Part shown: piece after piece, positions 4,588 to 9,948 of the stretch
Numbering within the stretch: the stretch's first letter is position 1
Layout: every line of letters starts with the position of its first letter
From: a virus
Taxonomy: Duplodnaviria; Heunggongvirae; Uroviricota; Caudoviricetes
IMG/VR virus record: IMGVR_UViG_2565956608_000010
Span: 1-20,320 of that record
Direction: 5' to 3' (one strand)
Length of the DNA: 20,320 nucleotides
Translations under genes and position numbers: made by a program
The notes under the pieces: model-generated
Told to the model about the DNA's origin: nothing
Database searches by the model: none
Seen by the model: the letters and a program-made list of their open reading frames with translations, nothing else

Positions 4588-5199
4588 TTATCTTTTTTTA
4601 ACACGCTTTCGAGTCCTTTTAGATTTTTCCTTAAGATATTCCGCAAGTTTATCCTCATCATTATTAAATTGAGATAAAAGCTCATGCTCGCAATTAAGTG
4701 CTTTACTCGCATAAGTTCCATATAGTTTCTTTCTTGCTAGTGCTGCTATGAATGCTGCATCTTCTTTGCTATCGAAATACCCTAACGATATTGTCTTATT
4801 TTTATAACCAACATAAGACTTCCACCTGCCAGTTGTCTTATCCCAAGACACTCCAATCGCACCGGATGTGTTTAACCTATTCCCTACAATGTTTCTTGCA
4901 TTCTGCTCCTCTGTTGCCAGTCTTAGATTTGAAATCCTATTGTCAAGTCTGTTCCCATTTACATGATCAATAAACTTAGGAGGCCATTTTTTGTATACAT
5001 AGAACCAAGCAAGTCTATGCGCATAATACAAAACATTATTTATGCTAATGCATATATAACCACCACTAACACCTCCAGCAATACTACCTTTTACTCTTAC
5101 TACTGAATTTGTTTTTAGCCATTTAAATATTCCTGTTTCTGAGTCATATGATAATGTTGACAGAAGCTCATCGTGATCAATTAGTTTTTTTATTCGCAT
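4588..5199 (-). CDS. HNH homing-type endonuclease with AP2-like domain, second copy (203 aa), AT-rich
   Basis: AHRLAWFYVYKKWPPKFIDHVNGNRLDNRISNLRLATEEQN (HNH) and GVSWDKTTGRWKSYV...LGYFDSKEDAAFIAALA (AP2-like); same architecture as 767..1279; codon usage looks AT-rich compared with the neighbours. Confidence 0.8.
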   Translation of the reverse strand: MRIKKLIDHDELLSTLSYDSETGIFKWLKTNSVVRVKGSIAGGVSGGYICISINNVLYYAHRLAWFYVYKKWPPKFIDHVNGNRLDNRISNLRLATEEQNARNIVGNRLNTSGAIGVSWDKTTGRWKSYVGYKNKTISLGYFDSKEDAAFIAALARKKLYGTYASKALNCEHELLSQFNNDEDKLAEYLKEKSKRTRKRVKKR

Positions 5200-5277: not shown

Positions 5278-5547
5278 TCATTGCTTCATCTCCCTTTCCA
5301 TTTCATCAATGTCAACGTCATCAGGAAGATGGGAGCAATACGCCGCTATACCATGATGATTTATCTCATACCCTTTGAACGTTACCATCTGGCGCGTAAT
5401 CTCAACTTCGTTCAGGAATCCGTCATCGCATAACTGCCTGGCTATTTTCGATTTGGTCTGGATTATTGGTAGTGCCTGTTCTTTCAAAGCGTATGATATT
5501 TGTGCATCCCATGCCTTTTCGAGAATGGCTAATTGTTTTTTATTCAT
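5278..5547 (-). CDS. hypothetical protein (89 aa)
   Basis: ORF whose ATG directly abuts the primase-helicase stop (TAAATG); no family recognised. Confidence 0.5.
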   Translation of the reverse strand: MNKKQLAILEKAWDAQISYALKEQALPIIQTKSKIARQLCDDGFLNEVEITRQMVTFKGYEINHHGIAAYCSHLPDDVDIDEMEREMKQ

Positions 5548-7428
5548 TTAATACTCCGTCACGTTTTCCTGTCGCCACGCCTCGTCATATTCCGATTTCG
5601 GCATATTGGCGATGTAGCTATATGGCGATCCTGATTCAAGTTGCAGGAACTGGTGCGATTGCTCGTCAAGGAACAACGGGATACCACCTTCCCAACCTTC
5701 ACCGTTACGTTGTTTTTCAAGCAACAAAACAGATGCCGGAGACACCAGTAGCTGTTCGTCCTTCTCTGACATCTGTTCACCGCTTTGAACTCTCTGTAAC
5801 GCTCTCTCGCGAGCCTTGTTACGCCAGATGATAAAAAGGTTGTCTGTCAGGTCTGTTATCGCTCCAGAGCCTTTTACGTCCATTTTCCCGGTTGGTTTTT
5901 CTTCGCTGTCTCCTTTTCGCGAGTGAGTAACGAGAATGACGTGGGAGTTTGTTTTGTTTTTGAAGTCGCAAATCGAGTCAACAAACGCCTTCTGCCCGTT
6001 ATAGTCATCGTCGCCTATGCCACATTTCATCAGGCTGTCGATGATGAATAACTGGATACCGTATCGGCGGCGAGCGTAGTCGAATATTTCGATCAGCCTG
6101 TCGGCTTTCGCCGTTCCGGTCAGGCCAAACACCCAAAGTCTTTCGTCATAAAATTTAAATGCAGAGTCAATTTCCAGCACTGGCGGCATCTTGCAGCACG
6201 TCGCCTGACGGGTAAGGCGCTTAAGGAGAATACCAGGCTTCAGCTCAAGTGACGCGATGCACGTCTTCACACCCTGACGCATTGCCTCAAGTGCCATATG
6301 CCCGACAACCTCCGTTTTTCCGTGACCGTTCACACCATTGACCAGCGTCAACTCGGCCTCACGGAACTGGAATTTATCTGCCAGAGATTCCCACGGTGGA
6401 TTAAACAGATACTGCTGCTTGCCGTAGAAAGCGTTGATAGTGTCCTGGTAAAACTCTCGCGCGCTGTAGAGTTCTTCAGGATCGAAGTAGGATGCCGTGC
6501 CGATGTACTGCCAGATTTCATCCTCGGTAACACCGTTCATCAGGCATTCGTTGATGTCTTTGTACGGCAGAGTAACAAGACGGCAACGATGTTCACCGAG
6601 TCGGCTTGCGATTTCCCTTGCGGCTTCACGACCAACATCATCAACGTCCATCGAGATGAATATTTCCTCAAACCTGTCGAGGTTGTGATACTCAAACTCA
6701 ATCCACTGCTGCTTAGCGCCTTTCCCGCCACCAAACGGCACGGATAACGCCGAGATGCCGTATTGCGCATAGCTCATACAATCAATTTCGCCTTCGCAAA
6801 GTACAACCGCCCTCACGCCAGCGTCCAGAGCCTGCCATCCGAACAGACAAGGTTCGCAATCACCTTCTGCCATAATGACTTTCTTCCCGTCCGGGCGCTC
6901 AGTGCTGATTCGCTTGACCTGCAACAACTCACCATCGCGTTTGTACGGAATCACCAGAGCATCCAGTTCCCGCTCTCCATTCCACACCTTGCCGCTGACA
7001 ACCTCGTAGCGCTTTACGATTTCTGGCGATATGCCACGCGATTGCAGGTACTCAAGATGGGATTCTGTTCTGGTAACGTAGCGGGCGATTTTCTTGCGAT
7101 CAGGTCTGGAGAATTTCTTCTCACGTCTGGCATCGAAATGGTGATCGTCATCCTTGATACCGAGAAATGCTTTCGCTTCCTGCATAGCCTGATGCAGGTT
7201 AATTCCACGACATGCCATCCACAAATCAAGCATGTCACCGCCGTCTCCCTCAGCGAAATCAGCCCATTTTTTCTTGCCGCTAAGGTTGACCTTAAGGCTG
7301 TTTCCCTTGTCACCGTTGACGTTACCGGCAACCCACTCATGCCCCTCTTTCTTGCCATTTGGCAACAGGTGCGGAGCCACCCTGTCAACCTGCGCCCAAA
7401 GCAGGTCGCTAAGTTCACTTGGCCTCAT
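5548..7428 (-). CDS. bifunctional DNA primase-helicase (N-terminal primase-like region, TOPRIM, C-terminal P-loop ATPase), 626 aa
   Basis: TOPRIM-like acidic motif VVLCEGEIDCMS; Walker A LVNGVNGHGKTE; Walker B-like LFIIDSLMK; RBS GAGGGAA before the ATG at 7428; occupies the position of lambda O/P. Confidence 0.8.
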   Translation of the reverse strand: MRPSELSDLLWAQVDRVAPHLLPNGKKEGHEWVAGNVNGDKGNSLKVNLSGKKKWADFAEGDGGDMLDLWMACRGINLHQAMQEAKAFLGIKDDDHHFDARREKKFSRPDRKKIARYVTRTESHLEYLQSRGISPEIVKRYEVVSGKVWNGERELDALVIPYKRDGELLQVKRISTERPDGKKVIMAEGDCEPCLFGWQALDAGVRAVVLCEGEIDCMSYAQYGISALSVPFGGGKGAKQQWIEFEYHNLDRFEEIFISMDVDDVGREAAREIASRLGEHRCRLVTLPYKDINECLMNGVTEDEIWQYIGTASYFDPEELYSAREFYQDTINAFYGKQQYLFNPPWESLADKFQFREAELTLVNGVNGHGKTEVVGHMALEAMRQGVKTCIASLELKPGILLKRLTRQATCCKMPPVLEIDSAFKFYDERLWVFGLTGTAKADRLIEIFDYARRRYGIQLFIIDSLMKCGIGDDDYNGQKAFVDSICDFKNKTNSHVILVTHSRKGDSEEKPTGKMDVKGSGAITDLTDNLFIIWRNKARERALQRVQSGEQMSEKDEQLLVSPASVLLLEKQRNGEGWEGGIPLFLDEQSHQFLQLESGSPYSYIANMPKSEYDEAWRQENVTEY

Positions 7429-7532
7429 GATTCCCTCAGATTGAGATTTTTAAACCAGAAATCGACAAACGAAATACTTAACCAGCCGTGGTTATAACCA
7501 GCGACCAGTAGCGATTTGATTTTTGATTTCAT
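7425..7532 (-). CDS. possible small ORF (35 aa) translationally coupled between initiator and primase-helicase
   Basis: ATG at 7532 six nt after the initiator stop; its stop overlaps the primase ATG (ATGA); manual translation MKSKIKSLLVAGYNHGWLSISFVDFWFKNLNLRES; may be only an intergenic spacer. Confidence 0.25.
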   Translation of the reverse strand: MKSKIKSLLVAGYNHGWLSISFVDFWFKNLNLRES

Positions 7533-7535
7533 GGT

Positions 7536-8333
7536 TCACCTGTCGAAAAACACGTAGCCAGTTTTCGATACGGTGATTGCGGATGATGGTTTGGATTGTG
7601 GTTGAATGGTTTCTGGCTTTTCGTCGTTCCAGCGCTGACCTTTCAGGTAGCTCGATGGTAACAACCTGTCGAATCCAAACTGCTTACCATTCCTGCATGC
7701 GATGTCTTCTGCCAGCATCGTGGCAAACTCGCTTGCCGTACCCCTGGTAGTTTTACGCCATTCCCTGAACTGTGTTCTGAATGCCGACGCTGCGTTTTTC
7801 TTCCCGGCCTTCCGCATGCCTGCACACCAGAATATTTCCTCGAATGCCTTGTCGGTTTCTTCGTGACGGTCAGGAGTTTTTTCACACTCCGTTCGGACAT
7901 GTTCGAACATAATGTTTTTAGGTTCATTGACTGGTTCAAAAGAGTGATAGGTTCTGGGGGCAGCTCCTGCCCCACCCCCTAGGGCAGCTCCTGCCCCACC
8001 CCGGGCAGCTCCTGCCCCACCCCGGGCAGCTCCTGCCCCACCTGATTCTGGTGGGATTTGTTGTGCATTATCCAGCGTCAGATAAAAAACGTTTGACTGG
8101 TTAAGCTCTCCTTTTCTTCTGCATTCCCTTTTCAAAAGACCCATCTCTTCCAGTGCCCTAATGTGACTTTTTACTGTCGATCTGCTCACCTCACACTGGT
8201 CAGCGACATGTTGATATGAAGGCCAGCATTCGCCATTATCATTGGCGTTATCGGCAAGTTTAATCAGAACCAGTTTTCTCAGTGGGTTGCCAACCTTTAT
8301 ATTCATGGCCTTAGCCATAAGATTCATGCTCAT
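7536..8333 (-). CDS. putative replication initiator / origin-binding protein (HTH N-terminal domain, Gly/Ala repeat linker), 265 aa
   Basis: N-terminal winged-helix-like segment (LVLIKLADNANDNGECWPSYQHVADQCEVSRSTVKSHIRALEEMGLLK); contains the iteron array in its coding sequence (translated as GGAGAARGGAGAARGGAGAALGGGAGAA); sits upstream of the primase-helicase in the lambda O position. Confidence 0.65.
   Translation of the reverse strand: MSMNLMAKAMNIKVGNPLRKLVLIKLADNANDNGECWPSYQHVADQCEVSRSTVKSHIRALEEMGLLKRECRRKGELNQSNVFYLTLDNAQQIPPESGGAGAARGGAGAARGGAGAALGGGAGAAPRTYHSFEPVNEPKNIMFEHVRTECEKTPDRHEETDKAFEEIFWCAGMRKAGKKNAASAFRTQFREWRKTTRGTASEFATMLAEDIACRNGKQFGFDRLLPSSYLKGQRWNDEKPETIQPQSKPSSAITVSKTGYVFFDR
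7956..8042. repeat. four tandem direct repeats of about 21 bp (GGGCAGCTCCTGCCCCACCCC), each with internal dyad GGCAG-CTC-CTGCC; putative ori iterons
   Basis: Unit starts at about 7958, 7982, 8003 and 8024 (periods 24, 21, 21), read directly; a more AT-rich stretch follows at about 7895..7950; arrangement parallels lambda ori inside gene O. Confidence 0.7.
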
Positions 8334-8473
8334 TTTGACTTCTCCGAAGTTTTGTACCTGTTAAGTATTTCTCTCAGTGGCACAGCTATTGCTGGATTAA
8401 CCCCCTGATAAAACTGGTCACGTAGCACATCTTTTCGGTGATTAACGCGTTTATTTTCCTGCGTTTTTCGCAT
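8330..8473 (-). CDS. small hypothetical protein (47 aa) between cII and the initiator
   Basis: Internal Met of the 103-aa track ORF (MRKTQENKRVNHRKDVLRDQFYQGVNPAIAVPLREILNRYKTSEKSK) with RBS GAGG before the ATG; stop overlaps the initiator ATG (ATGA); the longer track ORF overlaps cII and is rejected. Confidence 0.4.
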   Translation of the reverse strand: MRKTQENKRVNHRKDVLRDQFYQGVNPAIAVPLREILNRYKTSEKSK

Positions 8474-8495
8474 ATAATTACCTCGTTGGATGTTG

Positions 8496-8795
8496 TTAAA
8501 ATTCCATCTGGATTTGTTCAGAACGCTCGGTCTTGCACACCGGGCGTTTTTTATTGGTGAGTCCATCAAGTGCATACTTAAAAGCCCTGCTAATCGGACT
8601 GATGTCTGATGCCATTCCGAAAGCACACAAGACCGAAGCAATAAATCTCCAGTCCGTTCTGCTTATCTTCGATTCATGACAGCCAATCATCTTTGCCAGA
8701 CCGCGCTGGGTAAGCGTTGACAGGTTGATGAGTAAATCTGTTTCTGCGCGATCAACGTCGCGCTGGGATAGTTTGCTGTAACTTGTTTGTGTCAT
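8496..8795 (-). CDS. cII: CII-like transcriptional activator (99 aa)
   Basis: C-terminus TNKKRPVCKTERSEQIQMEF matches the lambda CII C-terminus (…TNKKRPAATERSEQIQMEF); position immediately downstream of cro. Confidence 0.85.
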   Translation of the reverse strand: MTQTSYSKLSQRDVDRAETDLLINLSTLTQRGLAKMIGCHESKISRTDWRFIASVLCAFGMASDISPISRAFKYALDGLTNKKRPVCKTERSEQIQMEF

Positions 8796-8933: not shown

Positions 8934-9143
<210 letters not shown>

Positions 9144-9158
9144 TTAGTACATGCAACC

Positions 9159-9228
9159 ATTATCACCGCTAGAGGTAAAATAGTCAACACGCACGGTGTT
9201 AGATATTTATCCCTTGCGGTGATAGATT
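9159..9228. promoter_or_regulatory. Right operator OR1-OR2-OR3 with divergent promoters pR (minus strand, to cro) and pRM (plus strand, to cI)
   Basis: OR1 TATCACCGCTAGAGGTA 9161..9177; OR2 CAACACGCACGGTGTTA 9185..9201; OR3 TATCCCTTGCGGTGATA 9208..9224; pR -35 TTGACT (9187..9182) and -10 GATAAT (9164..9159) on the minus strand; pRM -35 TAGATA 9200..9205 and -10 TAGATT 9223..9228. Confidence 0.9.
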
Positions 9229-9231
9229 TAA

Positions 9232-9948
<717 letters not shown>

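Follow-up and report, generated by a model that had tools for sequence, protein, structure and literature searches.

A putative iteron-type replication origin and an adjoining invariant DNA element within the HTH_36 initiator gene of a lambdoid prophage

The initiator gene and its repeat array

The DNA analysed here is a stretch of 20,320 nucleotides (hereafter the window) from the Caudoviricetes record IMGVR_UViG_2565956608_000010 of IMG/VR. Its minus strand carries a gene for a 265-amino-acid replication initiator, and inside this gene lies a short tandem array that a first-pass annotation, made from the sequence alone, had put forward as the iterons of a replication origin. The gene, its domains, the array and the gene that follows are located as given below.

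7536–8333, minus strand: initiator (O-like) gene, 265 amino acids, assigned by Pfam HTH_36 and the PHROG replication initiation families
8070–8333, minus strand: N-terminal winged helix, amino acids 1–88, from an AlphaFold model
about 7914–8066, minus strand: predicted disordered linker, amino acids about 90–140, encoded by the iterons and the conserved element, from AlphaFold confidence values
7539–7913, minus strand: C-terminal domain, amino acids about 141–265, from the domain layout
7958–8042, minus strand: iteron array, four copies of a 21-base-pair (bp) unit, from Tandem Repeats Finder, motif counts and shuffles
7958–7972, 7982–7996, 8003–8017 and 8024–8038, minus strand: 15-bp dyad cores GGGCAGCTCCTGCCC, from motif positions
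7880–7939, no strand assigned: part of the gene richest in adenine and thymine (AT), a candidate unwinding region with a guanine-plus-cytosine (GC) content of 33–38%, overlapping the conserved element and ...CCTAAAAACATTAT...
5548–7428, minus strand: primase-helicase gene, 626 amino acids, with Toprim_2 and DnaB-like/AAA_25 domains and the PHROG label 'DNA primase/helicase'

Tandem Repeats Finder reports a single array at 7958–8042 with a period of 21, 3.9 copies, 95% matches and a score of 143, the unit being GGGCAGCTCCTGCCCCACCCC. Exact matches to the 13-mer GGCAGCTCCTGCC start at 7959, 7983, 8004 and 8025, with no further occurrence in the window; with up to two mismatches allowed, 0.36 occurrences are expected by chance, and 0 of 100 shuffles reached 5. 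Start-to-start spacings are 24, 21 and 21 on the plus strand, or 21, 21 and 24 when read along the gene, where the 24-bp step adjoins the conserved element described below. Every copy contains the dyad GGGCAG-CTC-CTGCCC, which in the first copy has the form 7 + 3 + 7. The array lies wholly inside the open reading frame at 7536–8333 (minus strand) and encodes GGAGAARGGAGAARGGAGAALGGGAGAA, a repeat of GGAGAAR. The first-pass annotation had described four tandem copies of about 21 bp starting near 7958, 7982, 8003 and 8024, each with an internal dyad and together read as a Gly/Ala-rich repeat within a 265-amino-acid helix-turn-helix (HTH) gene, and all of these elements are borne out by the repeat finder, the exact 13-mer count, the dyads and the translation. 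It had also pointed to an AT-richer flank, which is real but modest: GC content is 75–83% within the array, and the 33–38% of the stretch at 7880–7939 is the lowest in the initiator gene, although not extreme.

On the G-rich gene strand, positions 7958–8042 read GGGGTGGGG-N12-GGGGTGGGG and onward. On this strand, which is the non-template one for transcription from pR, the pattern could give rise to G-quadruplexes with hairpins as loops, and it is confined to the iteron type of the window rather than being family-wide. A special cruciform in 7880–8110 is not supported, as folding of the single-stranded DNA was not clearly better than that of shuffles (z = −1.9).

The encoded protein belongs to the HTH_36-type phage replication initiator profiles (PF13730; PHROGs 4617, 270, 8540 and 391). 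Pfam HTH_36 (PF13730) matches amino acids 17–67 with an E value of 5.5e-14 and 52.1 bits against a cutoff of 25, and the PHROG matches carry the labels 'replication initiation protein' and 'replication initiation O-like' (phrog_4617, 1e-75; phrog_270, 2.4e-67). In an AlphaFold model built on 68 sequences, amino acids 1–88 form a confident winged helix (predicted local distance difference test score, pLDDT, of 77–88) with three helices followed by a beta hairpin, the segment 90–161 encoded by the repeats and the adjoining motif has a pLDDT of about 30, and the C-terminal helices are of low confidence. The repeat-encoded segment is thus predicted to be a disordered linker between the DNA-binding and C-terminal domains. 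A search of PDB sequences with the initiator returned insignificant matches only, and Foldseek with the N-domain returned generic winged-helix matches (MarR/Fur), none with an E value below 0.001.

The gene order around the initiator is cI, cro, cII, initiator, Toprim-DnaB primase-helicase and nin genes, and in this lambdoid prophage the locus corresponds to lambda O/P. As the first-pass annotation had stated, a primase-helicase lies downstream: the 626-amino-acid Toprim/DnaB-type gene stands directly after the initiator gene, and its product is presumed to be the partner recruited by the initiator C-terminal domain. The genes upstream, all assigned by Pfam, are the following.

8496–8795, minus strand: CII gene
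8934–9134, minus strand: Cro gene
9235–9948, divergent: cI-type repressor gene

Arrays in related initiator genes track the recognition helix

Relatives from annotated phages were fetched by tblastn with N-domain amino acids 1–97, and nine were examined; an alignment of these was then used to fetch 80 viral contigs. The N-domains of the nine phage relatives are 37–76% identical to that of the window. In every gene examined (nine phages and about 60 further variants), a tandem array is present at gene nucleotides of about 265–400, right after the wing. Carriers include Pectobacterium ZF40, Klebsiella RothD, Pseudomonas PseuP_222, Vibrio D65 and D77, Salmonella ST64B, Aggregatibacter S1249, E. 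coli mEp044 and Shigella SfIV.

In 56 of 64 distinct variants the repeats have a period of 21 or 24 bp, yet the repeat sequences and the peptides that they encode (for example, GGAGAAR, PPKSTAPV, GMPADST, GVVTQSH and SDPSK) are mutually unrelated. A 15-bp frame recurs in many arrays, its arms conserved and its centre free to vary (for example, GTGCA-N5-TGCAC or GTGAC-N5-GTCAC). In old arrays (ST64B and ZF40), copies have diverged down to 65–70% identity, with the arms retained and the centres varying. Furthermore, the spacing of ...21, 21, 24, with the 24-bp step beside the downstream element, recurs in the window, S1249, ST64B, ZF40 and D77, and among the relatives compared for geometry this element starts directly after the last iteron. 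Because period, arms and geometry are conserved while the peptides change, the repeats appear to be a feature of the DNA rather than of the protein.

Differences between arrays go along with differences in the DNA-binding domain. The recognition helix SKRSVMNHI pairs with GTGCA-N5-TGCAC, KRTAMR pairs with GTGAC-N5-GTCAC, and the helix and wing STVK..RRKGELNQSN pair with a GGGGCAG half-site. The core of the window, GGGCA-GGAGC-TGCCC, differs from the ST64B-type core, GTGCA-GGAGA-TGCAC, at arm position 2 (T to G, with A to C in the mirror position) and by one spacer change. These correspondences support the view that repeat type tracks the recognition helix and wing. The first-pass annotation had suggested a distinct initiator–iteron specificity, and the differing repeats that relatives carry at the same place, matched to their recognition helices, point the same way.

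The N-domain and iterons are exchanged as a unit

At the DNA level, the C-terminal half of the initiator gene is 93–97% identical to that of the initiator genes of ES18, epsilon34 and mEp043. The likeness extends through the downstream spacer and the primase-helicase gene, which are, together with the C-terminal half, 90–97% identical in ES18 (gp59/gp61), epsilon34 (gp50), mEp043, Sf101 and SEN22; in these five phages the primase-helicase gene is contiguous with the shared C-terminal domain. Of 5,426 complete E. coli genomes, 304 have a hit; most of the other matching genomes, like the five phages, agree with the window only up to 7921, and many hits cover just window 7700–7920. What ES18-type genes have in common with the window takes in the C-terminal initiator half, the spacer and the beginning of the primase-helicase gene. 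Two features mark the place at which these homologies break off.

7919–7922, no strand assigned: mosaic junction; ES18-type genes match up to 7921 and SI5-type genes from 7919 onward
7891–7908, no strand assigned: short palindromic sequence GTTCGGACATGTTCGAAC, located towards the C-domain from the junction and just beyond the AT-rich stretch

In ES18, homology with the window ends at 7921, and the N-terminal half and iterons are of lambda type (ATCCCTCAAAACGAGGGAT-like). The lambda-type iterons of ES18 (ATCCCTCAA..GAGGGAT) stand exactly where those of the window stand, and its depositors annotated them, within gp59, as a rep_origin 'similar to lambda ori'. The related gp50 of epsilon34 is 96% identical to ES18 gp59, and its N-terminal part is 94% identical to amino acids 17–148 of lambda gpO, of which the N-terminal 162 residues are reported to bind the origin (PMC2629481). 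The converse arrangement is seen in Salmonella phage SI5, which keeps the N-domain, iterons and downstream motif of the window and has a different C-terminal body, the junction being at 7919. Because ES18 shares the C-terminal half with swapped N-terminal half and iterons, and SI5 shows the converse, the N-domain and iterons act as one exchangeable specificity cassette, and the C-domain goes with the primase-helicase. The statement of the first-pass annotation that both the repeats and the protein are unrelated to lambda therefore stands in part. The iteron sequence is indeed unrelated to that of lambda, but the protein is in part related to O-type initiators, as its C-terminal half is shared with ES18, epsilon34 and mEp043, whose N-terminal halves are lambda-O-like.

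The palindrome at 7891–7908 is in addition picked up as a period-10 repeat and a terminator-like hairpin. ES18 has a palindrome at the equivalent place, GTCCGAAAGTGTTCGGAC, and shares with the window both this location and 'AAAAACATTAT'. In ori-lambda, too, a palindrome lies to the right of the AT-rich region, in a similar position.

Copy number varies among close relatives

The closest complete genome is that of E. coli N32, a cerebrospinal fluid isolate, whose prophage is 99.2% identical and has an equal number of iterons; RefSeq labels the two genes there just 'helix-turn-helix domain-containing protein' and 'toprim domain-containing protein'. The region is also 93.6–97.7% identical to Shiga toxin (Stx) 2-converting phages phi24B, Min27, Stx2a_F403/F451 and Stx2_EH2085/EH2086. 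Among these and other relatives there are two copies of the iteron in EH2086 and SI5, three in phi24B and several O157:H7 genomes, four in the window, five in one viral contig and seven in EH2085. Database proteins that are 86–98% identical have four to nine copies, with lengths of 265 to 301 amino acids that differ mostly in steps of seven. The flanks of EH2085 (seven copies) and EH2086 (two copies), of 2058 and 1958 bp, differ by one base, so expansion and contraction of the array must be very fast.

The variation is confined to the number of 21-bp units on one side. The promoter-distal iteron pair with the 24-bp spacing (peptide ...ALGGGAGAA) is kept in all variants with two to nine copies, and because copy number otherwise changes so rapidly, only this terminal pair is likely to be essential. 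Extra iterons may tune initiator titration or origin strength, or may be nearly neutral. In lambda-type Stx phages with six iterons, O binds efficiently on four only (PMC7466680). Many N-domain homologues in databases are 'partial' proteins of about 95–170 amino acids, which fits contigs that end in or near the array, and published copy numbers and Stx-phage typing of the replication region at this locus may be unreliable.

Such instability is what would be seen if the repeats were a slippage-prone Gly/Ala coding linker without any cis role, the origin of the phage being elsewhere. In favour of this explanation are the two to nine copies among relatives that are 86–98% identical, the seven versus two copies between near-identical flanks, the near-identity of the copies in the window, which implies recent expansion, and the predicted disorder of the encoded segment. 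A coding repeat alone, however, does not account for a 21/24-bp period and dyad-like arms with variable centres that are kept across Gammaproteobacteria while the peptide changes wholly, for the fixed 24-bp terminal step and fixed junction to the invariant element, or for the bona fide lambda-type iterons of ES18 at the homologous position. We consider this explanation very unlikely. The first-pass annotation had tied a hypervariable copy number to a repeat arising by slippage in coding sequence only; the hypervariability is found (two to nine copies), but the slippage-only reading does not agree with the family-wide position, period and geometry of the arrays.

An invariant DNA element adjoins the array

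Directly after the last iteron is a segment whose codons are essentially fixed across the family in Gammaproteobacteria. Its parts, all on the minus strand, are listed here together with a further copy of its 9-mer on the other side of the array.

7921–7957, minus strand: invariant DNA element, gene strand CCCAGAACCTATCACTCTTTTGAACCAGTCAATGAACC, recognized by a synonymous-site test
7928–7936, minus strand: exact AACCAGTCA within the element
7945–7953, minus strand: degenerate copy of the 9-mer, AACCTATCA, within the element
8094–8102, minus strand: another exact AACCAGTCA, oriented like the first, promoter-proximal to the array, in frame 0 and read as N-Q-S

The element spans about 36 bp and is made up of AACCAGTCA 9-mers in direct orientation, two to three in number, at spacings of 17 and 12 bp. 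All family members have CCCAGAACCAGTCACTCTTYWGAACCAGTCAA (peptide PRTSHSFEPV) right after the last iteron, the first 9-mer of the window being degenerate, and the extra copy at 8094–8102 is restricted to the group with the 'GELNQSN' wing.

Synonymous variation was scored in 17 diverse genes, which are an unbiased sample for the element because they were retrieved by N-domain peptide patterns only. Within the element, 6 of 1176 codon pairs that specify an identical residue differ (0.5%). For comparison, in an equally protein-conserved segment of the N-domain of the same 17 genes (PLRKLVLIKLADNANDxGECWPSYQHIADQ), 1996 of 3507 pairs (57%) differ. Arg is invariably encoded there by AGA, Ser by AGT or TCT and Pro by CCA within the element, Pseudomonas phages included. 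Moreover, the reading frame of AACCAGTCA varies: one copy gives T-S-H and the next E-P-V, and the third frame, giving N-Q-S, is used in mEp044, another contig and the copy at 8094–8102 of the window. Because the 9-mer is read in three frames, the conserved object is the DNA (or RNA) and not the peptide.

The exact 24-base core of the element occurs in at least 120 viral contigs, and in 107 of 107 untruncated cases it follows the repeats, in frame, within an HTH_36 O-like gene. It is present in 139 phage records, at one place in each; among the matches listed, all but a few are under replication, primosomal or HTH genes, and the rest are unannotated or 'hypothetical'. In a collection with one genome per species it has 71 places, with local GC contents of 38–63%. 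The hosts comprise Pseudomonas, Xenorhabdus, Photorhabdus, Vibrio, Photobacterium, Shewanella, Haemophilus, Cardiobacteriaceae, Microbulbifer, Amphritea, Providencia, Proteus, Pantoea and Erwinia. The element is present whatever the iteron type and whatever the partner (primase-helicase, DnaB-like helicase or lambda-P-like loader), and it is probably the constant core of HTH_36 initiator origins.

Several other roles for the element were considered. A promoter like lambda pO was dropped, as a promoter scan revealed no sigma-70-like site in or beside it. An overlapping open reading frame as the source of the near-absence of synonymous variation was set aside, as the constraint ends within about 36 nucleotides and the flanks are free. 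A recombination linker, suggested by mosaic junctions at its edge, would be hard to reconcile with identity kept across hosts of 38–63% GC. Rfam gave no match in the window, and inspection of the element by eye for DnaA-box and IHF consensus sequences gave none. A literature search for the iteron core and the 9- and 10-mers returned nothing relevant, chance primer or microRNA matches at most, and no description of the invariant element was found in the papers searched.

Two lambda-type genes with different iterons, those of ES18 (2040–2075) and P22 (about 1925–1960), have in common an adjoining A-rich stretch, ACACAAAAGACA.TAT.CAAAAGA. By analogy, this stretch may parallel the invariant element of HTH_36 genes.

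One account of these data holds that the true cis core is the AACCAGTCA element with the AT-rich stretch, the iterons being an accessory module that confers specificity or enhances, of which only the terminal pair matters. It draws on the contrast between 6 of 1176 and 1996 of 3507 differing codon pairs and on the 9-mer read in three frames, on the presence of the element regardless of iteron type or helicase partner, and on the fact that the adjoining terminal pair with the 24-bp spacing is the sole part of the array that is constant across two to nine copies. On the other side, the proximal 9-mer of the window is degenerate (AACCTATCA). We place this account just short of an even chance, and it would refine an iteron-based origin rather than contradict it. 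A more specific proposal, that the element is a universal unwinding, helicase-entry or single-strand initiator-contact site for the large HTH_36 initiator family, is offered tentatively and as somewhat doubtful.

The array as part of a replication origin

Taken together, these observations suggest, with a probability of roughly 80%, that the array supplies the initiator-binding sites (iterons) of the prophage replication origin, which would be built on the lambdoid plan. The array, linker and operon all conform to the lambdoid layout in which the origin lies within the initiator gene, and the N-domain and iterons both co-vary and are co-inherited. The likeness to lambda that had been drawn from the sequence at first is upheld by the gene position, the location of the linker and the rep_origin annotated at the equivalent spot in ES18.

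If this model is correct, dimers of the initiator would bind the dyad-symmetric 15-bp cores through their N-terminal winged helices, and sites about two helical turns apart would assemble a wrapped nucleoprotein complex. This complex would destabilize or open the adjoining conserved, AT-richer region at 7880–7957. The variable C-terminal domain would then bring in or load the primase-helicase that the phage itself supplies from the following gene, and initiation would thereby be independent of host DnaB, DnaC and DnaG. Under such a model the repeat DNA sequence is selected for binding, and the Gly/Ala peptide would be merely a disordered linker. Initiator binding, unwinding, helicase recruitment and origin activity are all inferred here from sequence comparisons.

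The repeats could instead be regulatory sites for the initiator or another regulator, serving autoregulation, a roadblock in the pR operon or handcuffing rather than initiation. Winged-helix HTH_36 proteins are often annotated as transcriptional regulators, and plasmid iterons also have control functions. However, the position of the array equals that of ori in lambda and ES18, and PHROG assigns the protein to replication initiation. A helicase or loader gene follows in four of six annotated relatives (ZF40, RothD, PseuP_222 and S1249), and the same coupling is seen in the window, ES18 and SI5; the next genes of ST64B and Vibrio D65 are annotated differently. Regulation could also coexist with origin function instead of replacing it, and a purely regulatory role seems highly improbable.

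Several points weigh against an iteron-based origin. Copy number, at two to nine, is highly unstable, from which it follows that most iterons are not individually essential, and recent expansion of the array is clearly driven by slippage; some of the copy numbers come from short-read assemblies in which repeats may have collapsed. The perfect dyad is not universal: EH2085, SI5 and others with essentially the same helix have GGTCAG...CTGCC or ATAACC second arms. The flank beside the iterons is merely moderately AT-rich. Finally, the papers searched yielded no experimental evidence for the HTH_36 initiator family, and no description of an origin was found there for phi24B, Eru5, HTH_36, SfV or ST64B.

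Other features of the region

Upstream of cro, a promoter-like sequence on the minus strand at 9159–9187 (TTGACT-17-GATAAT, 10 of 12 matches), presumably pR, faces the divergent cI-type repressor gene. A strong terminator-like hairpin on the plus strand at 8520–8550, with 12 pairs followed by a T run, is antisense to the 3′ end of cII; it sits where lambda has the oop RNA terminator, and no Rfam family matched it. The initiator start codon is flanked by a 20-nucleotide inverted repeat (8269–8288 and 8399–8418), 90% complementary with the arms 110 nucleotides apart.

At the 3′ end of the initiator gene, 7575–7612 hold a 19-bp near-tandem repeat, AAACCATCAACCACAATCC, with 1.9 copies on the gene strand, which ES18 has too. 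The last 17 residues of the initiator, PSSAITVSKTGYVFFDR, are retained even in SI5 despite its different C-terminal body, and they may contact the primase-helicase or overlap with its expression signals. Between the primase-helicase and nin genes, a minus-strand gene at 4588–5199 encodes a 203-amino-acid endonuclease with HNH_3 and AP2 domains, beside an 89-amino-acid open reading frame (5278–5547) without a Pfam match. This locus may be a homing-endonuclease insertion.

Comparison with known systems

The 'Eru5' region of Stx phages (Stx2a_F403, AP012529; 'O'/'P' of phi24B; Min27) is the same module as that of the window. Identity is 93.6–93.8% over a 1101-bp query, and for AP012529 it is 93.8% over 100% of window 7400–8500; phi24B has three copies of the iteron of the window, as against four. 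GenBank already names the phi24B gene 'O'. Eru5 has been published as an HTH_36 protein and a primase only, with no origin, iterons or repeats mentioned (PMC8951638). No stx gene turned up in the window, in which no systematic search for stx was made. Stx2a phages of outbreak O157:H7 strains carry Eru5, as does phi24B, and of this region the proteins alone have been catalogued so far (PMC8951638). A probable origin of Eru5, together with the variation between two and nine iterons, would offer a handle on replication rate and possibly on toxin gene dosage. Comparison of helix and wing with the 15-bp core would yield a simple specificity code, and the AACCAGTCA element, if functional, would be the core that stays constant throughout a widespread class of phage origins.

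A second resemblance is to the RepA_N plasmid initiators. Structures of RepA from pSK41 and pTZ2162 (4pql, 4pt7 and 5kbj) are among the Foldseek hits, although these are weak (E values of 0.008–0.03), and the window initiator has no Pfam RepA_N hit. In RepA_N initiators of Gram-positive plasmids, a winged-helix N-domain binds iterons in the middle of the gene, and a host- or partner-specific C-domain follows. The resemblance is worth noting because staphylococcal plasmids also carry iterons inside rep; it is a lead only and not evidence of membership.

In architecture, the putative origin is of the same kind as that of lambda. Placement of the origin within the initiator gene is textbook knowledge for lambda and P22, and iterons would therefore be expected at this site in a lambdoid prophage. 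That different phages carry different iterons, and the principle of an origin inside the initiator gene, are established for lambda, P22 and L (PMC8022706). P22 gene 18 is by sequence a member of the lambda-O family; it contains repeats of its own and an annotated rep_origin. As in lambda ori/O (and in gene 18 of P22 and L), the window has about four dyad-symmetric repeats of about 20 bp within the initiator gene. In both lambda O and the window initiator these separate an N-terminal DNA-binding domain from a C-terminal domain that serves recruitment in lambda O and is presumed to do so here. In each case a palindrome is present on the promoter-distal side of the iterons, where the window also has its modestly AT-richer stretch, a candidate counterpart of the unwinding region, and the gene follows cII in the pR operon and precedes a helicase or loader gene. 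The systems differ in their parts. No Phage_rep_O was among the Pfam hits at E ≤ 0.01, and BLASTP against P22 gp18 gave nothing; the N-domain of the window is of the HTH_36 family, and its iteron sequence is unrelated to that of lambda. The neighbour of the iterons is a set of AACCAGTCA repeats in the window and an A-rich, ACAAAAGACA-type stretch in the lambda type. The partner, finally, is a phage-encoded primase-helicase resembling T7 gp4, whereas lambda uses P with host DnaB.

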